Assembly (NCBI GenBank): GCA_966211525.1
Contig: CBIHOZ010000009.1
Location: 3,901-67,900 of the forward strand
Direction of reading: 5' to 3'
Source: an uncultured Chitinophaga sp.
GTDB taxonomy: Bacteria; Bacteroidota; Bacteroidia; Cytophagales; Cyclobacteriaceae
DNA: 64,000 bases
The translations under genes were made by a program, and so were the position numbers. Within the stretch, counting starts at the first letter, position 1. Each line of letters begins with the position of its first letter. Positions 42,696-59,195 of this stretch are shown here, piece by piece. Under the pieces are notes generated by a model that had not been told where the DNA came from, ran no database searches, and saw only the letters and a program-made list of their open reading frames with translations.

Positions 42696-44267
42696 ATGTC
42701 TCTCTTTTACGTCATAGTTATTGCCAGCAGCATTGTGGCAACTATCGTGTTGAGTATTGTTATCGGGTCCATCCTTTCCAGCAAAAAAATGAAAAGGAAT
42801 GTGGAAGACGCAGACGACCGCGCCAAGCTGATCATTAAAGAAGCTGAAATCGCAGCCGAGAATTTGAAGAAGGACAGGATCCTGGAAGCAAAAGAAAAGA
42901 TCCTGAAGATGCGCTCGGAGTTTGAAGAAGAAGCAAACAAGAAGAAGAACGTTATCATCAGCAACGAACAAAAGATCAAGCAGCGCGAGCAAACGCTAAG
43001 CAAGGAAATTGAAAGTTTAAAACGTAAGGAAGGCGAGCTTGACGACATCCGTACTGACCTGGCAGCACAGCTCGAGCATGTTAAGAAACGCAAGGAAGAA
43101 CTTGATAAATTCAACCAGCAGAAAATTCAGGTTCTTGAAAACATCTCCAAGCTTACAGCCGATGAAGCACGCGAGCAACTTATTGCATCGCTGAAAGATG
43201 AAGCACAAACCCGCGCTTCAAGCTATATCAAAGACATTATGGAGCAGGCTAAACTTACTGCTACCAAAGAAGCCAAGAAGATTGTTGTTGAAACCATTCA
43301 GCGCACCGCTACCGAGCATGCTGTTGAAAACTGCGTTTCGATCTTTAACATCGAGAGCGATGATATTAAAGGTAAAGTAATTGGTCGCGAAGGACGAAAT
43401 ATACGCGCCCTTGAAGCAGCAACCGGTGTTGAAATTATAGTAGACGATACTCCGGAAGCCATTATCATTTCAGGTTTCGACCCGGTGCGCAGAGAGATCG
43501 CACGTCTGTCGCTACACCGCCTCGTGCAAGACGGCCGTATACACCCAGCCCGTATCGAAGAGATTGTAGCAAAGACTACCAAGAACATTGAAGATGAAAT
43601 TGTAGAGATCGGTGAGCGCACCGTGATAGATTTAGGTATACATGGTCTTCACCCCGAGCTGGTAAAGATGGTAGGCCGCATGCGCTATCGTTCATCCTAC
43701 GGACAAAACCTGTTGCAGCACTCACGCGAAGTTGCCAACCTCTGCGCTATCATGGCGAGCGAACTTGGCCTCAACGTGAAGCAAGCCAAACGTGCCGGCC
43801 TGTTGCACGATATAGGTAAAGTATGGCCGGAAGAACTCGAGAAGCCACACGCTATAGTAGGTATGGAGCTTGCGCAGAAGTATAAAGAGCACCCGGTAAT
43901 TTGCAACGCTATAGGCGCTCACCACGATGAGATTGAAATGACGAGCATCATCTCTCCTATCGTGCAGGCCTGCGATGCTATAAGCGGTGCACGCCCTGGT
44001 GCAAGACGCGAAGTGATGGAGCAATACATCAAGCGCTTGAAAGAACTCGAAGAACTTGGCTTAAGCTTCGATGGTGTAGAGAAATGCTATGCTATACAAG
44101 CCGGCCGCGAGCTGCGCGTAATAGTAGATGCCGAGAAAGCAACAGACGACCGCGCCAACCAGTTAAGCTTCGACATATCGCAGAAAATTGAACGCGACAT
44201 GCAATATCCCGGACAGGTAAAAGTTACCGTAATCCGCGAGATGCGCAGCGTAGCGTACGCGAAGTAA
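42696..44267 (+). CDS. rny: Ribonuclease Y
   Basis: N-terminal TM and coiled coil, KH domain ([13 protein letters not shown]), HD domain (LLHDIGK). Confidence 0.97.
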
Positions 44268-44326: not shown

Positions 44327-44403
44327 ATACTGACTTATGATTTATCTTCCCTAAAAAGATTAATTGATGATATTACATTTCTTTGCATAGAAGATAACTT
44401 TAT

Positions 44404-44634
44404 ATGAAATCACGACTGAATCTTAGCATAGAACAAAATCTTTTAAATCAAATAAAACGATATGCTGACTCTAATCAAGTAAGCATCTCTGAACTTGTTG
44501 AAGAATACTTCAAAAGTGTTATACACCAAAAAACGCTCAACAACATCATCGATCTTGTTGAGAGATTACCGAACCATTCAATTTCTCCTTCGCAGAATTT
44601 GAAAAAAGGGTTCTATGAAGATTACAATAAATGA
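44404..44634 (+). CDS. DUF6364-like ribbon-helix-helix antitoxin, no toxin adjacent
   Basis: MKSRLNLSIEQNLLNQIKRYA...SISELVEEYF is an RHH pattern. Confidence 0.7.
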   Translation: MKSRLNLSIEQNLLNQIKRYADSNQVSISELVEEYFKSVIHQKTLNNIIDLVERLPNHSISPSQNLKKGFYEDYNK

Positions 44635-44652
44635 AATCAGTTATAGGCGGTT

Positions 44653-44826
44653 ATGAATAGAGAAAAAGTGATTGCTGTGCTTCAGGAACTTCCGCAGGAA
44701 TTTAACCTTGAAGAGCTAATAGATAAACTCATCTTTGTAGAAAAAGTAGAGCAAGGATTAAAACAACTCGATCAAGGAGAAAGTGTCCTTCACCAGAATG
44801 TAAAGGACATAATACCGTTGGCATAG
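44653..44826 (+). CDS. Small putative antitoxin (57 aa, not in ORF track)
   Basis: Hand translation MNREKVIAVLQELPQEFNLEELIDKLIFVEKVEQGLKQLDQGESVLHQNVKDIIPLA; resembles small proteins usually found upstream of RelE/ParE toxins. Confidence 0.6.
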   Translation: MNREKVIAVLQELPQEFNLEELIDKLIFVEKVEQGLKQLDQGESVLHQNVKDIIPLA

Positions 44827-44857
44827 AACTATCCGTAACGTATTTACATTGCTTACG

Positions 44858-45169
44858 CTAAGCTTTTTCTCTGTGCCCCTTTGAGCCTCCTTCGAGCCCT
44901 CCGTGCAATTGGATTTCGTTGTCATCATCATCCGCCTCATGCCACCCACGAGTTTCCTTCGCAGCCCTATCCAGCAACTCGAATAGCAGCGTAAGATCAT
45001 CCATCCAACTATCAAACTCTGGCGACAGAAAGTCTTTGTTATGCCCTATATATTCAATCAATAACGTGCGCAGGCACCGGTTAAGCCGCTCCGGCGGAGT
45101 ATATAACATAAAATGGTGAAAGGCCTCCGCCAACCGTTCACTAACAATCCGTTCATCTGTGTGTGACAT
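44858..45169 (-). CDS. Hypothetical protein divergent from XRE regulator
   Basis: 103-aa ORF; acidic C-terminus runs into a CACAGAG-type repeat. Confidence 0.55.
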   Translation of the reverse strand: MSHTDERIVSERLAEAFHHFMLYTPPERLNRCLRTLLIEYIGHNKDFLSPEFDSWMDDLTLLFELLDRAAKETRGWHEADDDDNEIQLHGGLEGGSKGHREKA

Positions 45170-45715: not shown

Positions 45716-45747
45716 TTTTAAAGTTTAAACCTTACCAAAAGTAAGTC

Positions 45748-46374
45748 GTGATGACAACCTTAAGAGAGTTTGAAAAAGAAATTAGAGAAAGAGAAAAACT
45801 CCTTAAAAACATTCTTTTACACAAAAGGGATTTTGAATTTCTCAATACCCCTGGAACTCCTGAGCTTATTCGTTTTTTAGCAAAGCATCCTTTATTTGGC
45901 AGATCTAAAGATGCAATCTTCAAGCTTTTATGTATTGAAGTGCACAAACTTTTTTCCGATTTAAAATGCGACAAGTTCAAATTAACTCAACTACTAGAAA
46001 AGATTAAGGAAAATAGAAAAAAAGCAGAATGGAGCGACTGTCTCCAAAAACATGATATCGAACACGTAGAGAAGCTAATCACTCGAGGATTAAGAAATGA
46101 AGCTATAGCAGGACTTAGACGTTACAGGAATAAATACCTAGCACATACTGACATAGAAAAAACAGATGCAACATTTTTTTTAAGCCATTTTTACACGCTT
46201 ATCGAGACCGCATTGGAAGTTATCGATTTTTTGAGAAAGAAAGTTCTTAAAGAAGAATTTAACCTTGAACTATACATACCAGCAGATGGATTCGAAGAAT
46301 TTCGAAGTTTGGCAACAACAAATACTCAATCAGGGTCCCTCGTAGTTCCCAAGGCAAGTGACGCTAATACTTAG
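45748..46374 (+). CDS. HEPN-domain protein (AbiU2-like candidate)
   Basis: RNKYLAH matches the HEPN Rx4-6H motif in an all-helical ~200-aa protein. Confidence 0.6.
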   Translation: MMTTLREFEKEIREREKLLKNILLHKRDFEFLNTPGTPELIRFLAKHPLFGRSKDAIFKLLCIEVHKLFSDLKCDKFKLTQLLEKIKENRKKAEWSDCLQKHDIEHVEKLITRGLRNEAIAGLRRYRNKYLAHTDIEKTDATFFLSHFYTLIETALEVIDFLRKKVLKEEFNLELYIPADGFEEFRSLATTNTQSGSLVVPKASDANT

Positions 46375-46568
46375 TCAGTAAACTTTCAATTAATCATACC
46401 TAATCGCCATTTAGCCCCCATCACCCACTACAACTCTCAATAGCAGAATCGTTCAAGTAATTATATCTTAATCTAGCAATTTGTCTATACTATATGTGAC
46501 TAACGATTTTACTAAAAGACAAAGTGTAAATAACATTAAGATGGCCCATTCCTTTTTATCCGTAGAGA

Positions 46569-47006
46569 ATGCCCCACACAGAAAGAACAATCTGTGTAAC
46601 AGATTCTTTCCTCCGTCTCTTTATGTATTTGTTCATTGAAGCTATTAATAAAAGTGGACTAACGCAGAACCAACTTAACATCTATAATCATTATGAATTA
46701 GAGTTAAAGCAAGTGAACACCTCTTTCATTGACTTCAAACTACAGGAAATATATGAAGATACTGAATTAATGAGCTGGTATACTTTGGCTCTCGACACAC
46801 TATCTTCATCACTCGATTCGAATGGAAAGGCTATAGACAACAATTACTTAAATGAGATAAAAGAATTAAAAAAGAACGACAGTAACTACACCAGACCTAT
46901 TGAGATCGGCAAACTTAAAAACTTGATCAATGATTTATACTGGGTTCTTGGTAAAGAAAATATCTATCCGTCTGATGACTTTAAATGGTTCGAAAAACCA
47001 ATATGA
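46569..47006 (+). CDS. Hypothetical protein (immunity-like)
   Basis: 145-aa acidic cytoplasmic ORF; no family recognised. Confidence 0.6.
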   Translation: MPHTERTICVTDSFLRLFMYLFIEAINKSGLTQNQLNIYNHYELELKQVNTSFIDFKLQEIYEDTELMSWYTLALDTLSSSLDSNGKAIDNNYLNEIKELKKNDSNYTRPIEIGKLKNLINDLYWVLGKENIYPSDDFKWFEKPI

Positions 47007-47020
47007 CATTGCTCCTATAC

Positions 47021-47057
47021 GCACCATCACGGTCACTGGCCGCCGGGACTCTGATGC
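47021..47057 (+). repeat. Type-B hairpin repeat, degenerate
   Basis: GCACCATCACGGTCACTGGCCGCCGGGACTCTGATGC, 14 nt after the stop at 47006. Confidence 0.65.
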
Positions 47058-47058
47058 C

Positions 47059-47100
47059 TAGTAGCAGTATCGCTGTTTTGAGAAAGATATAGTTTGTAAT
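47059..47100 (+). repeat. Type-C 42-bp repeat, copy 1 (diverged)
   Basis: TAGTAGCAGTATCGCTGTTTTGAGAAAGATATAGTTTGTAAT aligns with 54132 and 54601. Confidence 0.55.
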
Positions 47101-47137
47101 TTCAACGTACCACGTTAGTAGACACTCCTTCTCCGCA

Positions 47138-47437
47138 ATGAAAAAACTGAAATCAATTTTAGGACTTTTAATAATTGCTTTACTCTCAGCTTCGTGTAAG
47201 AGTTATTACAACGATACAATTGACTGGATGGACAACATCGAATTGGGAACAAGCTTGGAGGACGTCAAGAGAAACCAACCCAACTTTGTTGAGATTGACT
47301 GGAGTAAACCTGACACACTTGATGAAGGATTAAGATTTAGAATTAAAAAAATTAAAGGGAGCAACGACATATTGAACATGAACCACTTTGTGGTGTTCTC
47401 TGACAATAAATATGCGGGACGAGAATCTATTAAATAA
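47138..47437 (+). CDS. Small lipoprotein
   Basis: Lipobox LSASC. Confidence 0.75.
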   Translation: MKKLKSILGLLIIALLSASCKSYYNDTIDWMDNIELGTSLEDVKRNQPNFVEIDWSKPDTLDEGLRFRIKKIKGSNDILNMNHFVVFSDNKYAGRESIK

Positions 47438-47463
47438 GATCATAGCGGCAGACATCAGTTTTT

Positions 47464-47570
47464 AAGTCTCCGAAGAGTCTCCCGCCTCGGGGACTCTTAC
47501 GGGAGCACGCACTTAGCAACAGGCAGCTTTTAAAAAACGCATAGTCCCGAAACGGAGACTATGCTTGGAC
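47464..47570 (+). repeat. Type-A 107-bp double-hairpin element, full copy
   Basis: AAGTCTCCGAAGAGTCTCCCGCCTCGGGGACTC...GCATAGTCCCGAAACGGAGACTATGCTTGGAC. Confidence 0.95.
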
Positions 47571-47661
47571 TGTCTTCTTCCCACGGGCCATAATATATCT
47601 GTCTACAAATGGATATAAACAATGAGATTGATATATTAGAATATTAGCGATAATATTTTAG

Positions 47662-48378
47662 ATGGGAATCTTCGACCTTTTCAAAAACAAGACAGCGGAA
47701 GACTACTTCGGAAAAGTAATCAGTTTTACGCTCGACAATATTAGCAAAGCAGTTTTGAGTAATTGCAAAAACGGTGATTATGTAAATCTTTGGACAAAGT
47801 CGGACATGGATAGAGTAATGATCTACGCACCAAATTCTATTGGTGGGTCTGGGCAATTAGGAGTGGTACCAAGCAAGTATGCTAAAATTATCAAAGCACA
47901 TATTCTTGGACAAAAAGATTATGGGATTTCCGGACCGTCAACAAATAATTATAACGCTTCAATAATAAATATATCTGGGGCAAGTTGTACAATCGGAATC
48001 AAGTTATACTCAACCAAAGAACACGAACGAATTATACAGGAAATGATTAATCGTGACAAGGCTGCAACAAAAGCGGACTTGGAGAAGAAGTATAAAATGA
48101 CCAAGCCTGTGGAAATTAAGTTTAATATAAAGAGAACTGACGTGACGAATTTTGACAACTTGAAACTTAAAGTCTTTGAGAAGGAATTTTATATTGAGTA
48201 TCCATATGACTTTAAACTACAATTAGTCGATGACCACAATCGAATTGTAGCTGAAACGGTTTCGCAGAAGGAAAAAGTAACGAGAATTGTAAAAGGCTTC
48301 TATAACGGACAGAAAATTAGTATCACCAAAATTGAAAAAGAGCGTGACTATCTGAAAACCACAATAAGTGGTGAGTAA
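47662..48378 (+). CDS. Hypothetical protein (possible HIRAN-like N-terminal fold)
   Basis: 238-aa ORF; GDYVNL...VMIY...QLGVVP pattern is reminiscent of HIRAN. Confidence 0.6.
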   Translation: MGIFDLFKNKTAEDYFGKVISFTLDNISKAVLSNCKNGDYVNLWTKSDMDRVMIYAPNSIGGSGQLGVVPSKYAKIIKAHILGQKDYGISGPSTNNYNASIINISGASCTIGIKLYSTKEHERIIQEMINRDKAATKADLEKKYKMTKPVEIKFNIKRTDVTNFDNLKLKVFEKEFYIEYPYDFKLQLVDDHNRIVAETVSQKEKVTRIVKGFYNGQKISITKIEKERDYLKTTISGE

Positions 48379-48474
48379 AAAGAACTACTTAAAATAGATG
48401 AGTACAATCCATATGAATAACAATAACGAAATATATTTTGGAGACAAAAAAAATATATACCCGAGAAGAAACTT

Positions 48475-48526
48475 AAGTCTCCGAAGAGTCTCCCGCCTCG
48501 GGGACTCTGGCGGAAGCACGCACTTA
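48475..48526 (+). repeat. Type-A element, 3'-truncated
   Basis: Identical left hairpin; similarity ends after GCACGCACTTA. Confidence 0.9.
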
Positions 48527-48580
48527 TTAGCACAAATCCTTGTCGTGATGAGTTCTTAAATTTTAATAATTTATACATAC

Positions 48581-48787
48581 ATGGACTATACTGCAATATT
48601 TAAACAAACCTATAATGATTTATTGCCAGACTCCCTGGAGACCGCGCTAATTGCCATGAAGATTGCAGGTGCATCGCAGATAGACAGCATCAGAGTAGTG
48701 ATGTCTGAGCTAAAAATAACTCTTCGGGAAGCGGATGCTTTAATCCTAAATTCCAAGACTTGGGAGGATAAGAAGGAGTTAACTTAG
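48581..48787 (+). CDS. Small hypothetical protein (immunity-like)
   Basis: 68 aa, GASQIDSIRVVMSELKITLREAD...NSKTW. Confidence 0.55.
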   Translation: MDYTAIFKQTYNDLLPDSLETALIAMKIAGASQIDSIRVVMSELKITLREADALILNSKTWEDKKELT

Positions 48788-48850
48788 AAATTAAGGAACG
48801 ACATCGCTGACATATGGAGCGGTCCTGAATAGCAGTATCGATCATAATTA

Positions 48851-48957
48851 AAGTCTCCGAAGAGTCTCCCGCCTCGGGGACTCTGTCGGAAGCACACACT
48901 TAGCAACGGCCAGCTTTTCAAAAACGCATAGTCCCGAAACGGAGACTATGCTTGGGC
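48851..48957 (+). repeat. Type-A element, full copy
   Basis: Both hairpins identical to the 47464 copy. Confidence 0.95.
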
Positions 48958-48997
48958 ACCAACGCTCAATATTTCTTTTTGAAACTTAGAGAGAAAG

Positions 48998-49879
48998 ATG
49001 AAAAAAATCATAATTGCAATTCTTGTTAGTATACTTTTCTCAAGTTGTTTTATTGGTGCAGGTACTCATGGAAAAATAGAAAGTTACCAACTGCCTTATT
49101 CTAATGAACATATTGTTAACGCTGTCGATCAATTTCTTTTAGCTAATCCTTTGTATTTTGAAAGTACTGAAGATAATGGTTGGATTTACATTAAGATACC
49201 TCCAGAGAACAACAGATTCGGATTCACCATTGGAGGTCAATCTGAAATCGTGTTAATAGCGGTAGGCAAAGAAAACGAAACAACTAAATGGAATAAAGAT
49301 CTCTCGTCTTCAGAGAAGAGAACGTTCTCTGAAATCTTCAAAGAGAAATTCGTAAACAAATTACACCCTGCAACTACATCTGAAGATTTACTTAAAAGCC
49401 CCTTTACTCTTACCATTAATAACAATGCGGATGCTGATTTATGGCCAGAGTATATTTTTACATCGGAGACACTAATAAGCTACCCGCTACCTTTTGAATT
49501 TGATAGTTTGAAACTTGATTACTTCGAGGATCTAGTTGTATCCTTTAGCAAACAGATAGGGCGTCAAATACAGGTAAATCAATTTTACAATATTTTCAGG
49601 ATAGACAAAGATTACTCAGGTTACATTGCAGACAGTATTTATATTACCAAGCTGTATCGCACAATAGGATGTAACAAAAAGGCCATAACCATTTTTGATA
49701 ACATTGCATGGGGCCAGTATATAGATGTTAAAAATCAACGTAACAGAATTCAAGACTATAAAAGATTACGCAAACAAAAAACAGAAAGAGGATATAGAGA
49801 AACAGATGTTTACTCTGAATTTTCAGAAGAACGCTGGATGCTGAGTGATAGACATCTAATTCGCAATCAAGATGATTGA
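48998..49879 (+). CDS. Lipoprotein, unknown function
   Basis: Lipobox LFSSC. Confidence 0.75.
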   Translation: MKKIIIAILVSILFSSCFIGAGTHGKIESYQLPYSNEHIVNAVDQFLLANPLYFESTEDNGWIYIKIPPENNRFGFTIGGQSEIVLIAVGKENETTKWNKDLSSSEKRTFSEIFKEKFVNKLHPATTSEDLLKSPFTLTINNNADADLWPEYIFTSETLISYPLPFEFDSLKLDYFEDLVVSFSKQIGRQIQVNQFYNIFRIDKDYSGYIADSIYITKLYRTIGCNKKAITIFDNIAWGQYIDVKNQRNRIQDYKRLRKQKTERGYRETDVYSEFSEERWMLSDRHLIRNQDD

Positions 49880-49888
49880 TGTTCTGAC

Positions 49889-49998
49889 GCACCATCAGAG
49901 TCACCGGGCCCGTCTCGGTGACTCTGGCCGAAGCACGCACTTAGCAACAGGCGCTCTTCAAAAGAAGCATAGTCCCGAAACGGAGACTATGCTTGGAC
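49889..49998 (+). repeat. Hybrid element: type-B left hairpin plus type-A right part
   Basis: GCACCATCAGAGTCACCG...CGGTGACTCT followed by GGCCGAAGCACGCACTTAGCAACAGGC...GCATAGTCCCGAAACGGAGACTATGCTTGGAC. Confidence 0.92.
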
Positions 49999-50224
49999 AG
50001 CAAGTGATTCTAAAGCAATCTTCCCTATTCGTTTTTCAAGCATAAAAAACTTCATTTTATTTTACCCATACGTTAACCATTAACGAGGTATTAATATTTA
50101 CATGTTGATAGTATAAGAGTAATTACCGGTAGAATAATTTGAGCAAAACCTGATTTTCCCGGTATAGTATATCATACATAAATGCGTGTTATTGTGTTCA
50201 ACAAACTAAAATTCGTATTTCTTT

Positions 50225-51400
50225 ATGTTAAAAAAAACTACGCTACCAACACTTTGTCTACTGTTAACATTTGCATTTAGTTGTAACGACCAAAGTGTGA
50301 TTGAACAACATGATACTGTTGTCCCATTCGATCCCAGTACAACTACAACTCTACCGCATGATACAGGTACACCAGCCTATACATTTAAGTTAACAAGCCA
50401 GGCTAGTATATATGCAAATGTAAAAAGTACTTTTTCCAATATAAAAGTTGACTCTGACCTGGTTTCAGTTAACAACGAAGGTGTAAAGATAGCCGACTTT
50501 TCGCGTCTGGATAATATACCCGCTAATCTGGCATTTCTAAAAAATGTAAAAGTTTTTGATGATGAAGCAGGCACAATGCAGGCATTGACAAACGAGGAGT
50601 TTAGACAATTAATGATCAATCAGCTTAACGCTTGCGAATTTTCCGATGCGTTCAAGCAAATATTTATAGACTTCTACGATTACATCAAAAACACGATGCC
50701 TACTAAATCTTATGAATCTTTTAACATAAAATGCAATAGTTTTATGGAAAGGGTAGCTATAGGCGCTTCCGCATCAAAATATACGGAACTGGAAAAATTT
50801 GCAGTTGTTCAGGTCTTTGCTCAGTTAAGACAACTGGTAAAGTATACCTACGAAAATCCAAGCTCAGCATGGAATAACACAGCAAATGGACGTAGCAGCT
50901 CTGGTGGTTGTTTGCCTAAGACAAAAGATGAGTGGAAGGCCATTGCGGAGGCTGCATTTACAGGTGGAGTGATGGCAGGTGTTAGCTTAGGAATCAAAGG
51001 CATCGAAGCCGGTGCTATAGCAACCACTGCTGCCGGTAATCCTGTTGCCGGGGGCGTTGTAGGTGGGATAATTGGCTTTACAATTGGCTTTACCAGTGGT
51101 GCAATTGGCAGTGGCAGTGTAAAACTAATGTTTGATTGCTTATGGAAAAAAGCCGCCAGCTTAAATGTGCCATTAACAACTTTTGTTTGTAGCGGAAAGG
51201 TATATCAAGCTTACACCAATTCAATTCCAACTGGATGTGAAGCTGGAGGAAATAGCATTATCACACAACAGCCTTATCAAGATCATGTTAAACGAATGCT
51301 AAAAGGAATTTTTGAGTTAGGTGTTGTACCGAACGCAGGCAAACAAAAGATTAATGTTAATGTGGAGAATGACATTAAATTTGTAGTATCAAACTTATGA
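50225..51400 (+). CDS. Lipoprotein with glycine-zipper hydrophobic segment (candidate antibacterial pre-pro-toxin)
   Basis: Lipobox FAFSC (Cys20); NGR at residues 221-223; GxxxG-rich stretch at about residues 247-297. Confidence 0.6.
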   Translation: MLKKTTLPTLCLLLTFAFSCNDQSVIEQHDTVVPFDPSTTTTLPHDTGTPAYTFKLTSQASIYANVKSTFSNIKVDSDLVSVNNEGVKIADFSRLDNIPANLAFLKNVKVFDDEAGTMQALTNEEFRQLMINQLNACEFSDAFKQIFIDFYDYIKNTMPTKSYESFNIKCNSFMERVAIGASASKYTELEKFAVVQVFAQLRQLVKYTYENPSSAWNNTANGRSSSGGCLPKTKDEWKAIAEAAFTGGVMAGVSLGIKGIEAGAIATTAAGNPVAGGVVGGIIGFTIGFTSGAIGSGSVKLMFDCLWKKAASLNVPLTTFVCSGKVYQAYTNSIPTGCEAGGNSIITQQPYQDHVKRMLKGIFELGVVPNAGKQKINVNVENDIKFVVSNL

Positions 51401-51642
51401 AACGTGTAATTAGCTTTTTAGGATACTTCGTTTTCTTCTTGGTATCCTTGTACGCATTAAGTCATGTTAGATTTTTTTCTACAACTGCAATGAACATGTC
51501 AGAAACAAAAAATATAGCGTGGCTTATAACCACCTCATTTGTATTGAGCTTGGGTTATACATTGACTAGCGAGAGGATAAAAAGATTCATTGGCAATACA
51601 ACAAAAAAAATAGTAGACAAAAAGAAGCATGATCCGAACTGA
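51397..51642 (+). CDS. Two-TM small membrane protein (candidate immunity)
   Basis: ATGA overlap with the upstream gene; two hydrophobic helices and a basic tail. Confidence 0.6.
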   Translation: MKRVISFLGYFVFFLVSLYALSHVRFFSTTAMNMSETKNIAWLITTSFVLSLGYTLTSERIKRFIGNTTKKIVDKKKHDPN

Positions 51643-51655
51643 GTATCAGACCTGA

Positions 51656-51683
51656 CTCCATCAGAGTCACCGGCCGGTGACTC
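51656..51683 (+). repeat. Type-B hairpin
   Basis: CTCCATCAGAGTCACCGGCCGGTGACTC, 13 nt after the stop. Confidence 0.85.
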
Positions 51684-51744
51684 CTTAAGCCTGCCCCAAA
51701 GACACCCAATCTCCATTTCAAAAGTTGAGATAATATTTTAAATT

Positions 51745-51851
51745 AAGTCTCCGAAGAGTCTCCCGCCTCGGGGACTCTTGCGGAAGCACACACTTAGCAA
51801 CAGGCGTTTTTCAAAACACGCATAGTCCCGAAACGGAGACTATGCTTCGAC
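51745..51851 (+). repeat. Type-A element, full copy
   Basis: Both hairpins identical to the consensus. Confidence 0.95.
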
Positions 51852-51889
51852 TGTCATAATCCTTAAATTGTAATTTGATTTTGCCAAAG

Positions 51890-52066
51890 ATGAGAAAAGA
51901 GATTGTGACTGATTCAACTCCAAAACCAGATGAGTCCTCAAAAGAGGATATCATTGAAAGACTGATAATAATTGAGAAAATAAAGAAAGGCCGGCAGCAA
52001 ATAAAAGAAGGTAATGTTAATACTGAAGACCAGGCAAGGGTAAAGCTAGATAAATGGTTACGTTGA
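51890..52066 (+). CDS. Small putative antitoxin, orphan
   Basis: MRKEIV...EDIIERLIIIEKIKKGRQQIKEG...KLDKW; same family pattern as 44653-44826 (LI..EK...G..Q...G). Start placed at ATG 51890. Confidence 0.55.
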   Translation: MRKEIVTDSTPKPDESSKEDIIERLIIIEKIKKGRQQIKEGNVNTEDQARVKLDKWLR

Positions 52067-52097
52067 TTTTCCTTCTAACACAGTGGCATCAAATTTT

Positions 52098-52565
52098 GTG
52101 AAACACATCTCCTATCTATACTTACTTATACTGGTAAGCTGTACCACGACCACATCATCTCTTCAAGAAGAAGAGAAAAAACTTGTCGGAAACTGGAAGG
52201 AGCCAGTAGATAATGGAGCGATACAAGGGTCGTATATGGAGTTCCATGAAGACCGCACTGGTGTTTTCGGACCAATCATTAATGTTAAGGGCAAAGTCGG
52301 AATTGCACCCTACTTGTCGTTCCTAATGAAAGACTGGCGAATACAAAACGACACACTTTCTATTCAATTCGAAATGCAGCCGGGTTACGCGGTCTATAGC
52401 CCCGATGGAAAGAAAATCAGAAAAAACGATAAGCCCAGTTATGTCCGCTATATTGTTTGGGAGGTGTCCGACACAGTGATTGTCCTGGAAGATCTCGTTA
52501 GTGAATTTCCAGGCATAAAGGAACGTCTGAAAAAGTCGGAGAAAATGGAACTTTTGAATGAGTAA
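52098..52565 (+). CDS. Lipoprotein (lipocalin-like candidate)
   Basis: Lipobox ILVSC; LVGNWKE motif; GTG start at 52098 (52083 also possible). Confidence 0.65.
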   Translation: MKHISYLYLLILVSCTTTTSSLQEEEKKLVGNWKEPVDNGAIQGSYMEFHEDRTGVFGPIINVKGKVGIAPYLSFLMKDWRIQNDTLSIQFEMQPGYAVYSPDGKKIRKNDKPSYVRYIVWEVSDTVIVLEDLVSEFPGIKERLKKSEKMELLNE

Positions 52566-52572
52566 ATTGCAT

Positions 52573-52589
52573 CTCCATCAGAGTTACCG
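52573..52589 (+). repeat. Type-B hairpin, left arm only
   Basis: CTCCATCAGAGTTACCG, 7 nt after the stop. Confidence 0.65.
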
Positions 52590-52670
52590 TCCGCTATATT
52601 TTAACTTGTTCCGTATGCAAACCCATATATATACTAATGATATTTCTATATTAGGGCAAGCCCGCAGGCA

Positions 52671-53189
52671 ATGAACAACATCAGAAAAGTACTTAGAGCA
52701 AAGCACTGGCAAATTTTTTCAATTTTGATGGGTATCTCATTTATTCAGGGATCGAGTCAAGGGTCCAGTAGTGGGATAAGCACCATCTTCTATATTCTGT
52801 ACATCGTTATTTATATTGGCTGGCTTTTAGTGCTAGGCATGGGATTAAAATCCATGCGACTGAATGTCGCGATGAATTATGCGCTCTTTTTAGCAACAGG
52901 GATTGCGCTTATTACGGTGGTCGTTTCTGTTAAAATTTTAGAAACAATGGGGTTGCTGAACAACTTCGAAAATGATGCAATAGCAATACCAATGCTGGTA
53001 CTCATACTTACTTCGTTAATCATAGTTTGCAGTTTCATTGCAAAGAACTTAAAAATAAATGAAAAGGGAGAGGACATTGATATTAATGATTACTTCGGAG
53101 ACATTCTCCGCTTGATATTCTGGCCTATAGGTATATGGAGTATTCAGCCTCGCATAAATAGATTAGCGGCCAAGTTGATCAGTCACTAA
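52671..53189 (+). CDS. Four-TM membrane protein
   Basis: Hydrophobic segments; C-terminal FWPIGIWSIQPRIN. Confidence 0.75.
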   Translation: MNNIRKVLRAKHWQIFSILMGISFIQGSSQGSSSGISTIFYILYIVIYIGWLLVLGMGLKSMRLNVAMNYALFLATGIALITVVVSVKILETMGLLNNFENDAIAIPMLVLILTSLIIVCSFIAKNLKINEKGEDIDINDYFGDILRLIFWPIGIWSIQPRINRLAAKLISH

Positions 53190-53221
53190 CTGGGCTATAA
53201 TGCATCATTTGCCTTTGCTAC

Positions 53222-53246
53222 CCTATCAGAGTCACCGATCCTCTGA
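53222..53246 (+). repeat. Type-B hairpin, internally deleted
   Basis: CCTATCAGAGTCACCGATCCTCTGA. Confidence 0.65.
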
Positions 53247-53315
53247 ATTGAAATAAGAAGGACTTATAGAATGGAGTATAGCAAAAATCACATTTAAAGC
53301 GAAACAATTTTAACT

Positions 53316-53489
53316 ATGAAACAATCAATACTCTATATTGTGCTTGGCGCCTTAATCATCATTGGTGGATTGCGTCAAAATGAACACAGATTAATTCCAG
53401 AGTTTCTGTACTATATATTCGGGGGTATATCACTGATCTTTGGAATATATAAATTATTAACTAACGAGCCTGACGACAAGCAGCAATAA
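53316..53489 (+). CDS. 57-aa two-TM membrane protein (not in ORF track)
   Basis: Hand translation MKQSILYIVLGALIIIGGLRQNEHRLIPEFLYYIFGGISLIFGIYKLLTNEPDDKQQ; the TAA stop overlaps the next repeat. Confidence 0.6.
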   Translation: MKQSILYIVLGALIIIGGLRQNEHRLIPEFLYYIFGGISLIFGIYKLLTNEPDDKQQ

Positions 53490-53595
53490 GTCTCCGAAGA
53501 GTCTTCCGCCTCGGGGACTCTAGCAGAAGCACACACTTAGCAACAGGCAGCTTTTCAAAAAACGTATAGTCCCGAAACGGAGACTATGCTTCGAC
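53488..53595 (+). repeat. Type-A element, full copy
   Basis: One substitution in each hairpin relative to the other copies. Confidence 0.95.
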
Positions 53596-53665
53596 TTTAG
53601 CAACATTCCGTGTAATAGGCGACCTACATCGTTATACACAAAAAAACATTTTAGACTTCTGAACC

Positions 53666-54127
53666 TTGACAACAATACATCTCGTAACCGAAATAGAAGC
53701 CGATATATATACCTGTTTTGACGCAGCGCGTGATATTGACATTCACAAGCTCTCAACAAAACAAACAAACGAAATTGCCATTGCCGGTCGCACAAGCGGG
53801 CTTTGCGAATTAGGTGACATGATAACATGGGAAGCAACACACTTCGGAATAAGACAACAATTAACCGTTGAGATTACCAAGTTCAACCGACCTTACTTCT
53901 TTGAAGATAAAATGCTGAAAGGCGCCTTTAAAAGTATGCAGCACAAACATTACTTCGAAGAGAAAGACGGCAAAACCATAATGATCGATAAATTCGAATA
54001 TGAAGTTCCGTATAGTATAGCAGGTAAAATCTTCAATACTATAATTTTAAAGCGCTACATGACTTCGTTTCTCGTAACCCGAAATCAGTTTATCAAATCC
54101 GTTGTAGAAGCGAAACGAGCACATTGA
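53666..54127 (+). CDS. SRPBCC family protein
   Basis: FDAARDIDIH, WEATHFGIRQ, GAFKSMQHKHYF; TTG start. Confidence 0.8.
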   Translation: MTTIHLVTEIEADIYTCFDAARDIDIHKLSTKQTNEIAIAGRTSGLCELGDMITWEATHFGIRQQLTVEITKFNRPYFFEDKMLKGAFKSMQHKHYFEEKDGKTIMIDKFEYEVPYSIAGKIFNTIILKRYMTSFLVTRNQFIKSVVEAKRAH

Positions 54128-54131
54128 TGCT

Positions 54132-54173
54132 TAATAGCAAAAATCACTATCTTGATAAGATATAGTTCATAAC
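54132..54173 (+). repeat. Type-C repeat, copy 2
   Basis: TAATAGCAAAAATCACTATCTTGATAAGATATAGTTCATAAC, 4 nt after the stop. Confidence 0.75.
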
Positions 54174-54182
54174 ACGTAACAA

Positions 54183-54596
54183 ATGAAAAGACCTCAAGAC
54201 TTCTTTACAATCTATAAGCAATCGGCATGGGATAAGGACACCGAAGGCATGATTGCATTGTACCATGACAGCGTTGTGATTTTTGACATGTGGACGAAAG
54301 GGTATCAAACAGGACTTACAGAATGGTCTAGCGTAATCAAAAATTGGTTAGGCTCATTAAGAGACGAAAGTGTAAATGTGATCTTTGAAATGATAGAACT
54401 TCACGAAGGTAACGATGCCGGGTTTGGAAGTGCTTTAATTACTTATCAAGCCATTTCAACGAACAACACAATTGTAAGAAGCATGAAAAACAGAATTACC
54501 GTAGGGTTTATCAAACAGAAAGATGAGTGGAGAGTAATTCATCAACACACATCTGCTCCTATCAACTCCAACCTTGAAGCTATTTTGAATATCTGA
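54183..54596 (+). CDS. SnoaL/NTF2-like (YybH-type) protein
   Basis: IALYHDSVVIFD, WRVIHQHTSAP. Confidence 0.8.
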   Translation: MKRPQDFFTIYKQSAWDKDTEGMIALYHDSVVIFDMWTKGYQTGLTEWSSVIKNWLGSLRDESVNVIFEMIELHEGNDAGFGSALITYQAISTNNTIVRSMKNRITVGFIKQKDEWRVIHQHTSAPINSNLEAILNI

Positions 54597-54600
54597 TATT

Positions 54601-54641
54601 TAGTAACAAAATCATTATCTTGAAAAAATATAGTCTATAAC
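54601..54641 (+). repeat. Type-C repeat, copy 3
   Basis: TAGTAACAAAATCATTATCTTGAAAAAATATAGTCTATAAC, 4 nt after the stop. Confidence 0.75.
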
Positions 54642-54692
54642 CTCAGCCACCCCAGCATAAAAATTTTTGACAGTTGGTTTAAAACAAAAGTT

Positions 54693-55256
54693 ATGAGAAA
54701 ACTAGTTGCATCAATCAACATGACGCTCGATGGGTTTTGTGATCACACATCTGCAATTGCCGATGACGAACTACATCAACACTATACCGACCTGTTATTT
54801 AACGCGGGCGACCTTCTGTACGGAAGAATAACATACCAGCTCATGGAAGACTACTGGCCAACGGTAGTTAAAAATCCCACCGGCAATAAACGCACGGACG
54901 ACTTCGCTGTGATCATAGAAAACATTCCCAAAACTGTTTTCTCCCGAACGCTGAGTAATGTAAAATGGAAAAATGTAAAACTTGCCAAGAGAAGTCTTGA
55001 AGAAGAAGTTTTAGAACTCAAGCAATCGAACGATCATGGAGGTAAAGACATTTTAGTGGGCAGTCCGAGTTTAATTGCAGCGCTGACAAAACTTAATCTG
55101 TTTGATGAATACCAACTCTGCGTTCACCCGATTATAGCGGGACAAGGTTTAACATTGTTTAAAAATATAACCGACAGCATGGTTCTTAAACTTGTAAAGA
55201 CAAAAACACTTGGTGGTGGCCAAATAGTACTTTACTATGAGCCAGTGAAAAAATGA
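54693..55256 (+). CDS. Dihydrofolate reductase family (RibD C-terminal-like) protein
   Basis: NMTLDGF, LYGRITYQLM, DEYQLCVHPIIAG.G. Confidence 0.88.
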   Translation: MRKLVASINMTLDGFCDHTSAIADDELHQHYTDLLFNAGDLLYGRITYQLMEDYWPTVVKNPTGNKRTDDFAVIIENIPKTVFSRTLSNVKWKNVKLAKRSLEEEVLELKQSNDHGGKDILVGSPSLIAALTKLNLFDEYQLCVHPIIAGQGLTLFKNITDSMVLKLVKTKTLGGGQIVLYYEPVKK

Positions 55257-55410
55257 TTAGTCTTCTTTTATTCTCATCGTAACATAAGCAAAGTATATTC
55301 TTCGATTTAAGAATTAGATTTATCGATCCTGCTACCAAACATCAGAATTCAGGAGACCGATGACTCTAATGGGGTATCTAGATATATACTCCTACTCAAA
55401 TGCAATTGAT

Positions 55411-56013
55411 ATGTATAAAAAAATCCCTATAGCGTTAATAACATTCCGACTAGTTATTGTTCCAGTAATTTTAGGGCTAACCTATTATCTCAGAGATGAA
55501 GCACGGTCAATAGTACTTGTCCTAATGTACCTGGGTTTGATATCCGACATACTTGATGGAATTGTTGCCAGACATTTGAATGTTTCGTCTCCAGCCTTGA
55601 GGCGTTTCGATAGTCAGACTGATATGTTATTCTGGCTGTCTATAGGAGTAAGCACCTGGCTACTACATCCAGATCTTATTGCGAATAATAATATAGCAGT
55701 AATTACAATTCTTGCCATGGAAGTGATCTGCTATATGGTGAGCCTGCTAAAATTTAAAAGGGAAACCTGCACACACGCATTTCTCTCAAAGCTCTGGGGA
55801 ATAACACTGCTTATCGCTTTTACTTCTTTGATTGGATTTGACTATGCAGGCCTCCCTTTTGCAATAGCGATTACTGTGGGATTAGTTGCGCACATTGACA
55901 GAATACTGATCACGCTGGTCCTCCCGGCATGGACACATGATATACCAAGTGCTTATCACGCTTATCTTATCAGGAAAGGGATTCCGTTTAAAAAGAATAA
56001 ATTATTCAATTAA
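55411..56013 (+). CDS. CDP-alcohol phosphatidyltransferase family protein
   Basis: SDILDGIVAR...RRFDSQTD motif; start placed at ATG 55411. Confidence 0.85.
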   Translation: MYKKIPIALITFRLVIVPVILGLTYYLRDEARSIVLVLMYLGLISDILDGIVARHLNVSSPALRRFDSQTDMLFWLSIGVSTWLLHPDLIANNNIAVITILAMEVICYMVSLLKFKRETCTHAFLSKLWGITLLIAFTSLIGFDYAGLPFAIAITVGLVAHIDRILITLVLPAWTHDIPSAYHAYLIRKGIPFKKNKLFN

Positions 56014-59109: not shown

Positions 59110-59119
59110 AATAATCTCC

Positions 59120-59170
59120 CAACAGTCTGGAGACTGTTGCCAATGCTGGCACAAGTCGGAGACTTGCGCC
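59120..59170. repeat. REP-like hairpin doublet
   Basis: CAACAGTC-TGGA-GACTGTTG and GGCACAAGTC-GGA-GACTTGCGCC. Confidence 0.8.
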
Positions 59171-59195
59171 GGTTAATTTAACGACCTCCAGGTCA

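Follow-up and report, generated by a model that had tools for sequence, protein, structure and literature searches.

The repeat at positions 49886-49998 of the window, the whole 64-kb stretch of contig CBIHOZ010000009.1 analysed here, is very probably a hybrid of two hairpins of the repetitive extragenic palindromic (REP) family located at a true recombination junction. Its left part comes from a repeat designated type B and its right part from a second one, type A, and it marks the joint of two small gene cassettes in a fast-changing gene island. The best explanation of the data as a whole, which we favour with some reserve, is a hybrid REP dimer left as the scar of a short-homology fusion of the two cassettes. 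The copy clearly illustrates a type of repeat mosaic that was known before, and it does not represent a new system: mixed REP dimers, described as 'heterodimers', 'hybrid dimers' or mosaics of bacterial interspersed mosaic elements (BIMEs), are already known from other bacteria, and the hybrid itself is minor in this respect.

The family to which it belongs is an unannotated repeat family of soil Cytophagales, tied to REP-associated tyrosine transposases (RAYTs) by an identical hairpin core in eight genomes. Instead of being scattered, the REP-type hairpins appear to cluster here where the cassettes of a fast-evolving hotspot meet. These junctions can be read at the nucleotide level (three B/A fusions and several breaks at the hairpin apex) and can be used to test illegitimate recombination against a nuclease acting at the hairpin foot. 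Below, W denotes the window, L-numbers related loci or contigs, and X-numbers public sequencing runs.

Structure of the hybrid copy

The stretch 49880-50000 reads TGTTCTGACGCACCATCAGAGTCACCGGGCCCGTCTCGGTGACTCTGGCCGAAGCACGCACTTAGCAACAGGCGCTCTTCAAAAGAAGCATAGTCCCGAAACGGAGACTATGCTTGGACAG. A type-B left module (GACGCACCATCAGAGTCACCGG, 49886-49907, plus strand) opens 7 nucleotides (nt) past the stop codon of an open reading frame (ORF) of 293 amino acids (aa). The module agrees with the B consensus GACGCCCCATCAGAGTCACCGG, derived from ~20 B copies across 10 related arrays, at 21 of 22 positions, and with the A left arm at 8 of 23, which is the chance level. The segment 49920-49993 agrees with the A consensus at 64 of 74 positions. 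The original prediction, made from the letters of the window, had described exactly such a copy, with a type-B left half joined to a type-A right half.

The switch had been predicted at or just after GACTC, and the comparison located it between T49919 and G49927 (plus strand), within the GACTCTG shared by both types at the 3' foot of hairpin 1. The type-B hairpin of the hybrid spans 49886-49919, and the type-A linker and hairpin 2 follow from 49927. T49919 is restricted to B variants within the window. G49927 is the first A-specific base, and the sequence onward is A-like (GC[C/G]GAAGCAC) and not B-like (ATGC...): after GACTCTG the copy reads type A, GCCGAAGCACGCACTTAGCAAC..., and then hairpin 2.

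Hairpin 1 (49896-49926, plus strand) is a perfect 13-bp stem (49896-49908/49914-49926) with the loop CCCGT, in which the normally bulged A is paired with T49919. The linker (49927-49964, plus strand) is an unusual variant of the type-A linker (...CAGGCGCTCTTCAAAAGAAG). Hairpin 2 (49965-49994, plus strand; AAGCATAGTCCCG-AAA-CGG[A]GACTATGCTT) is of the hairpin-1 type in inverted orientation, with a bulged A at 49984, and its 18-nt core is identical to RAYT-side hairpins in L011, L015, L019 and L027. Exact copies of the 15-mer CCATCAGAGTCACCG are located at 49892 and 51658; when up to three mismatches were allowed, 12 matches were obtained versus 0.95 expected, and the 26-mer of hairpin 2 had five occurrences versus 0 expected. 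The predicted fold of the whole 121-nt stretch had an energy of -28.1 kcal/mol (z = -5.2).

The junction was recovered with zero differences in a 364-nt contig of X5 (49680-50043) and in a 188-nt contig of X20 (49890-50077). These are metagenome runs of different studies, and one of the samples may be the window's own source. Because contigs of two runs carry the identical junction, an assembly artefact was ruled out. The loop and right arm of the hybrid, CCCGTCTCGGTGACTC, are similar also to CCCGCCTCGGGGACTC of type A. Owing to this resemblance, the exchange may alternatively, though with lower probability, have occurred where left arm and loop meet, with a later G-to-T change.

Repeat types A and B

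Hairpins 1 and 2 of type A and the type-B hairpin are 26-35-nt bulged palindromes, all located in intergenic spacers, with the common core AGTC-[bulge]-CCG...CGG-GACT. Type A consists of hairpin 1 (AAGAGTC[T]CCCG-CCT-CGGGGACTCTT), a ~40-nt linker and an inverted hairpin 2 (bottom strand, GCATAGTC[T]CCG-TTT-CGGGACTATGC), this kind of hairpin being written as GCATAGTC/GAAGAGTC; ~28 copies were found in 10 arrays. Canonical type B (CATCAGAGTC[A]CCGG-CCG-CCGGGACTCTGATG) differs from type A by a bulged A in place of the bulged T; it also has the outer stem CATCAG/CTGATG and continues into a ~60-nt tail (TAGTAGCAGAATNGTTCAAGTAATTATA...), which the original prediction had called type C. Its usual site is 7-40 nt past the stop codon of a cassette.

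Other copies in the window, all on the plus strand, include full type-A elements at 47464-47568, 48851-48955, 51745-51849 and 53488-53592. A further type-A element (48475-48526) ends after CACTTA, where a TTAGCA microhomology joins it to the leader of the next ORF. Type B is represented by an imperfect hairpin with tail (47019-47106), a hairpin with the perfect 20-nt palindrome GAGTCACCGGCCGGTGACTC (51653-51681), a left arm alone (52570-52592) and a hairpin with an internal deletion (53218-53245). The right partner of the copy at 51653-51681 is unlike those in L002, L029 and the Logan contigs. These B copies continue, as had been noticed earlier, either into the type C tail (47059) or into unique sequence (51682, 52593, 53241).

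The two bases after GACTCT in type A, which form an internal loop of the long hairpin-1 stem, vary almost copy by copy (TA, GG, GT, TG, AG, GA, CG and AA), and the remaining element is 90-95% conserved. In the window these sites lie on the plus strand at 47497-47498, 48508-48509, 48884-48885, 49925-49926, 51778-51779 and 53521-53522, and they are also present in relatives. The window B hairpins without a normal right side (49896-49926 and 51662-51681) are perfect palindromes in which the usual bulged A pairs with T. In the orthologous B copies of L029 and L033-35 the bulge is retained, and their 11-12-nt loops differ by strain. With regard to a terminator or a known RNA, no T runs were seen by eye after the hairpins on either strand, and Rfam at permissive E-values returned no family for any repeat.

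Relation to REP elements and RAYT transposases

A scan of 185,579 species, one genome each, returned the exact 18-nt core of hairpin 2 at 27 loci. These belong to Ohtaekwangia, Chryseolinea, Cyclobacteriaceae, Flammeovirgaceae, Chitinophaga and unclassified Bacteroidota, together with one match in Halobacillus (L024), which is a chance hit. A metagenome scan with the 22-nt hairpin-2 pattern gave one locus only, L028. Y1_Tnp was detected by a Pfam census of 107 ORFs from the 27 loci, and BLAST and tblastn identified a ~190-aa HUH/Y protein, RAYT-like by its HUH and Y motifs, in eight of the 27: L019:1389-2106, L015:2606-3316, L011:6901-7834, L005:180-552, L007:753-1126, L004:3-748, L027:1747-2518 and L025:6486-7052. 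The hairpin lies ~20-200 nt from the RAYT gene in these loci except L004, where the exact-core copy is ~2.9 kb off and the gene is followed, ~120-230 nt downstream, by two related hairpins. An inverted hairpin pair stands on both sides of the RAYT gene in L005, L007, L011, L015 and L019.

The RAYT motifs of these proteins, (M)PNH[IL]H and YIH[ENDT]NP (in general form NH[ILV]H and YIHxNP), fit TnpA-REP subclasses 2.6 and 2.4, which are centred on Bacteroidetes (Quentin et al. 2018, PMC6006769). The right hairpin of L015 is placed within the 3' end of the RAYT ORF, as described for subclass 2.4. The proteins also match Pfam Y1_Tnp. The NCBIfam model NF047646 (REP-associated tyrosine transposase; curated cut-off 80 bits) matched those of L027 and L004 with 108 and 91 bits, respectively; the other three proteins reached 57-60 bits, which is below the cut-off, yet at full length and as their sole match. 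The JGI label of homologs is REP element-mobilizing transposase RayT, and the top PDB match was 4er8, E. coli TnpA-REP, at a weak E-value of 0.09. B-like features were also observed beside RAYT genes, namely AGTC[A]CC in L004 and the outer stem CATCAG/CTGATG in L005 and L007.

Because inverted pairs of the same hairpin enclose a RAYT gene in other Bacteroidota, the repeat family is, judged by homology, REP-like. In our reading, type A is a doublet similar to a BIME or to a REP doublet forming hairpins (REPIN), with the layout of a RAYT unit without the gene, and type B represents a sister REP that continues into a tail of ~60 nt. The hybrid copy is a REP heterodimer composed of B and hairpin 2.

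Linkage to neighbouring ORFs and crossover positions

According to the original prediction, each half of the element would travel with its adjoining cassette, and recombination would take place at the foot of hairpin 1. Classification of the copies at related loci confirmed the linkage for the right end of the element. Hairpin 2 and the flank GACAGCA(A/G)GTGATTCT precede the same pair of ORFs, of 391 and 81 aa, in W, L029, L033, L034, L035 and a 1.8-kb contig of X4, behind four left contexts: in W, the 293-aa ORF followed by a B hairpin; in L033-35, a 241-aa ORF followed by a complete A left arm; in L029, a minus-strand ORF followed by an A left arm with an internal deletion; and in X4, an A left arm with the 3' flank of the 99-aa ORF. 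Right-end linkage was likewise observed in four other cassettes (W/L028, W/L029 twice and W/L012). B left arms are kept with their upstream ORFs (5/5 for an 81-aa ORF, 2/2 for a 145-aa ORF and 3/3 for SnoaL), and the sequence after them differs between strains.

The linkage did not extend to every part of the hybrid. Its linker, CACGCAC...GGCGCTCTTCAAAAGAAGC, is not the linker of the gene pair, which in relatives is preceded by CACTCAC...GGCAGCTTTTCAAAAACGC; compared with the linker of the same pair in L029/L034, 8 of 21 positions differ in the distal part. Co-inheritance with the 391- and 81-aa pair is demonstrable only from hairpin 2 onward. Nor is the left half a fixed companion of the upstream cassette: the ortholog of the 293-aa ORF in L029 and X9 is followed by GACGCCC, a vestige consisting of the first 7 nt of B, and then by a whole A element with its own left arm. 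The CAGGCGCTCTT segment of the hybrid linker was seen elsewhere only in a truncated A (L029 11564-11587). That copy, which comprises the left arm, hairpin 1 and the linker up to CAGGCGCTCTT, stands in tandem with a full A at L029:11519-11690.

Two crossovers between A elements could be positioned. The copies at L029 14444 and L035 3791 have a common left arm marked TTCCAC (TCCCAC in L033 and L034; CCAC in all) and differ in the linker, CACGCAC..GCACC versus CACTCAC..GCAAC. The copies at W 47492 and L028 have TA-CGG, CACGCAC and the downstream ORF in common but not the upstream flank. Both crossovers map either inside or to the left of a segment that extends from the hairpin-1 loop to ~12 nt past GACTCT, and the hybrid junction of W falls in the same hairpin-1 segment. 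A third B/A hybrid, at L017/L033 4675, has its junction at the left arm/loop. Among the ~28 A copies of the arrays there are therefore three B/A fusion forms (W; L017/L033; L029/X9) with three different junctions. Because the junctions differ, B-left/A-right is not a propagating subfamily, and a common independent subfamily of this kind, which would have spoken against the predicted recombination, was not found among these array copies.

Hairpin 1 is thus a crossover hotspot but not a unique site, because breaks also occur at the B apex, at TTAGCA of the linker, at element edges and in the A left arm. The predicted recombination at the hairpin-1 foot agrees with the several crossovers mapped there, whereas other breakpoints, truncations and deletions are common. 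Overall, the proposal that the halves assort through exchange at this site is partly supported, and nothing shows a dedicated recombinase.

Origin of the hybrid

Under the short-homology reading, a B hairpin ending the 293-aa cassette would have been fused in register to an A element heading the 391- and 81-aa cassette. The fusion point would be the 7-9 nt common to both hairpins at the 3' foot (CGG-N-GACTCTG), and the event may have been hairpin-stimulated illegitimate recombination through this short homology or slipped-strand deletion between direct hairpin-forming arms. DNA between B and A would have been lost in the fusion, and no dedicated recombinase would be required. The same 7-9 nt are common to any B and any downstream A. 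The adjacency B-tail-A is common (L002 3675-3874, L029 14330-14520 and W 51656-51849) and sets two direct copies of ...GGACTCTG ~75-100 nt apart. In L029 ~1.7 kb lies between the 293-aa and 391-aa ORFs.

Short-homology recombination is favoured because truncations and deletions between short direct repeats are frequent in the elements. The A left arm at L029 12580-12600 is deleted between its own direct repeats AGTCTCCG / AGTCTCCCG, the linker is deleted at L035 913, B copies at W 52573 and L030 3791 consist of the left arm only, and the A element ending at W 48526 stops at the TTAGCA microhomology. Perfect palindromes are the usual outcome of template switching in quasipalindromes, and the two perfect-palindrome B hairpins of the window fit this process. 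When a short-homology mechanism is set against an enzyme-catalysed one, however, we give it slightly less than an even chance.

Several observations weigh against this origin and the REP assignment. The 293-aa ORF followed by an intact B-tail-A was not found in L029, L030 or L031 or in runs X9, X11, X21 and X22, so the proposed ancestral state was not observed in any of these relatives. Resolvable crossovers (n = 3-4) cluster in hairpin 1, and copies that are otherwise 90-95% identical show a hypervariable dinucleotide after GACTCT; both features are also expected from an enzyme cleaving at the hairpin foot. The bulge is conserved, as in substrates of Y1 transposases and integron integrases, and a purely replicative model assigns it no function. 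The linker of the hybrid is unlike every other linker seen, and therefore more than one event or gene conversion would be needed. REP membership rests on homology to RAYT-flanking hairpins of other genera; tblastn found no RAYT in the 64-kb window, and none was present in or beside the nine arrays. The exact hairpin-2 cores of O. kribbensis and O. koreensis all lie within the array, unlike dispersed REPs.

An enzymatic origin would most naturally involve a RAYT encoded elsewhere in the genome that cleaves single-stranded DNA at hairpin feet in trans and rejoins the 3' flank of A to B, an exchange that would give in-register hybrids and shuffle cassettes between hairpins. E. coli TnpA-REP reportedly cuts and rejoins single-stranded REP DNA at a CT beside the hairpin. 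Consistent with such an activity, RAYT genes at 8 of the 27 loci have these hairpins as their cognate flanks, the bulge is conserved, the hybrid junction and the two A-by-A crossovers fall at the hairpin-1 right arm or foot, the dinucleotide after GACTCT is hypervariable, and the break between the B left arm and its right partner lies at the hairpin in several strains. The absence of a RAYT from the window and the nine array loci argues against it, as do the many junctions that are imprecise or away from hairpin feet. Moreover, two Ohtaekwangia genomes have no exact-core hairpin outside the array, and therefore no RAYT gene there adjoins the exact 18-nt core; whole-gene movement between REPs by a RAYT has not been described either. 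We regard RAYT-catalysed exchange as a rather unlikely origin of the hybrid. It is improbable, furthermore, that REP hairpins of the RAYT family now serve as recombination sites of a cassette platform downstream of rny in Ohtaekwangia-like Cytophagales, operated by a Y1/HUH transposase in trans. Single-gene cassettes would then be inserted, deleted and reshuffled, and the hybrid would be a direct exchange product. If an enzymatic reading were true, the hotspot would represent integron-like gene capture by a different enzyme class in a phylum nearly without integrons.

Two further explanations were considered. The hairpins could act as attC-like sites for a tyrosine recombinase in trans, with the locus resembling either an attC-site cluster that has no integron-integrase (CALIN) or a recombinase-associated acquired interbacterial defence array (rAID-1), and with the hybrid as an attC-by-attC product. 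Co-oriented hairpin sites after the stop codons of single-gene cassettes, a cassette order that varies among relatives, variable loops on conserved arms with an extrahelical base, and SUKH/SMI1_KNR4 and DUF4304 cassettes in relatives are all compatible with this idea, and the intergenic repeats of rAID-1, 'reminiscent of integrons', lie beside a XerD-like recombinase (Ross et al. 2019, bioRxiv 10.1101/471110). Nevertheless, we give it very little credence: no integrase or Xer-like gene was found within or beside the nine arrays, the sites lack GTTRRRY/RYYYAAC boxes and are homologous to RAYT-flanking REPs and not to attC, breakpoints keep to no single fixed position, and classical integrons are almost absent from Bacteroidetes. 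A classical integron was rejected because the arrays showed neither an integrase nor attC boxes. Next to no credence is given to an origin without recombination, in which the copy would be an A element with a point-mutated left arm or a member of an independently spreading B-left/A-right subfamily. The A and B left arms do share an AGAGTC-N-CC-G core (10/16 positions), and heterodimeric REP pairs are normal in some genomes. However, over its leftmost 22 nt the copy agrees with B at 21 positions and resembles A no more than by chance, the other B/A hybrids differ in junction and right half, and synteny breaks exactly at the hybrid in three relatives.

Comparison with known systems

By homology, the elements are best assigned to the REP/BIME/REPIN repeats of RAYT systems. 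Like these, they are short imperfect extragenic bulged palindromes, found either singly or paired as inverted doublets across a 20-100-nt spacer; in relatives, inverted copies of the hairpin border a RAYT gene, and different REP variants form a heterodimer. Unlike them, they appear to be few and restricted to one accessory gene array in the window and two Ohtaekwangia genomes, without wide dispersal. In the window 11 of the 12 AGTC...GACT hairpins lie at 47.4-53.6 kb, the other ~57 kb being without any. Their vicinity showed no RAYT, a GTAG/CGTC tag is absent, and sites where close relatives have gained or lost genes at the cassette level coincide with the elements. The layout of type A resembles a RAYT unit that lost its gene (cf. 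an element of the IS200/IS605 type or a miniature inverted-repeat transposable element).

The array shares with integron attC sites, CALINs and Vibrio cholerae repeats (VCRs) the co-oriented hairpins with extrahelical bases after cassette ORFs, the high similarity of sites in one chromosomal array and the strain-variable order; like a CALIN, it has no adjoining integrase. It differs from an integron in lacking IntI, attI and R/L boxes, in its scattered breakpoints and in the homology of its sites to Y1-family REPs. No Phage_integrase-type gene was found in the window island or in L029, L030, L033, L034 and L035, and inspection of all A and B copies revealed no attC R''-L''...L'-R' architecture with RYYYAAC/GTTRRRY boxes.

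The rAID-1 arrays of gut Bacteroidales are similar in being Bacteroidota chromosomal arrays of many small low-GC co-oriented ORFs with repetitive intergenic sequence, and SUKH/SMI1_KNR4 immunity-type domains occur in the arrays of relatives of the window. In contrast to rAID-1, no XerD-family recombinase stands at the array head, where rny, a 103-aa ORF and an Xre-type helix-turn-helix (HTH) gene are found instead. By recombinase and site architecture the array is neither an integron nor a rAID-1; nonetheless, it behaves like one. The dRS3 repeats of Neisseria are CGTC-1 REPs clustered in mosaics and make up the neisserial intergenic mosaic elements (NIMEs). The elements described here belong to a different sequence family and phylum, and NIMEs are mostly non-coding, whereas each unit here contains an ORF.

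The cassette hotspot and its gene content

Housekeeping genes occupy the window as far as rny (42696-44267) and are followed by low-GC small co-oriented ORFs. The hotspot (45716-56013) is bounded by rny, the 103-aa ORF and the Xre-type HTH gene on one side and by doxX/hxlR on the other. It was found in nine relatives, each with a different cassette set and order; the relatives named here are Ohtaekwangia kribbensis (L017, L035), O. koreensis (L013), UBA5867 (L012) and the metagenome contigs L029, L030, L033 and L034. Between W and L029 core genes are 95% identical, and at least six cassette-level replacements or indels were counted; of the 10 block ends, 8 coincide with a type-A, type-B or tail element.

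Both cassettes joined by the hybrid are on the plus strand. The upstream ORF of 293 aa (48998-49879) belongs to no Pfam family and has an ortholog with 92% aa identity in L029. The downstream cassette (50225-51642) comprises the 391-aa lipoprotein-like ORF and the overlapping 81-aa membrane ORF, and its nucleotide identity to L002 1929-3873 and L029 12583-14535 is 92.8-93.6%. Exact-protein look-ups of the 293-aa and 81-aa ORFs gave no record, and homologs were used instead. The 391-aa gene is split into two or three ORFs in O. kribbensis (L035:2202-3418) and in L033:11119-12292 and is intact in W, L029 and L034.

Pfam searches of the cassette cargo at E-values up to 5 gave no credible match. 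Cassettes of relatives contain SUKH_6/SMI1_KNR4, DUF4304, PIN_12 and DUF6615, which suggests that the cargo in those arrays serves immunity or defence. Immunity-type domains were found in the relatives' arrays only, and most of the window cargo is without a recognisable immunity family.

Directly after the rny terminator, 44330-44861 contains a DUF6364 antitoxin-like gene and a 57-aa ORF, which are absent in L029 and L017. In L030:483-1137 a DUF6364 gene is followed by a PIN toxin gene; the window has no PIN gene there. No hairpin elements stand at the bounds of the DUF6364 indel. In the O. kribbensis assembly an N lies inside an A repeat at L017:5594, and contig 3 (L035, from position 1) starts within the array. 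The array of this species was probably split or mis-joined at the repeats; a continuous arrangement is seen in L033.

Beyond the hxlR flank of the hotspot, two small AGTC...GACT hairpins lie between two ORFs at 59110-59195 (CAACAGTC-TGGA-GACTGTTG and GC(A)CAAGTC-GGA-GACTTGCGC). They may be minimal relatives of the same REP family. Inverted B-type hairpins were observed at 55336-55372 of the window and, in L034/L035, between RibD_C, a 156-aa ORF and a CDP-OH_P_transf gene. The CDP-alcohol phosphatidyltransferase gene has its start codon within one such inverted B hairpin, at a site where synteny with L029 breaks.

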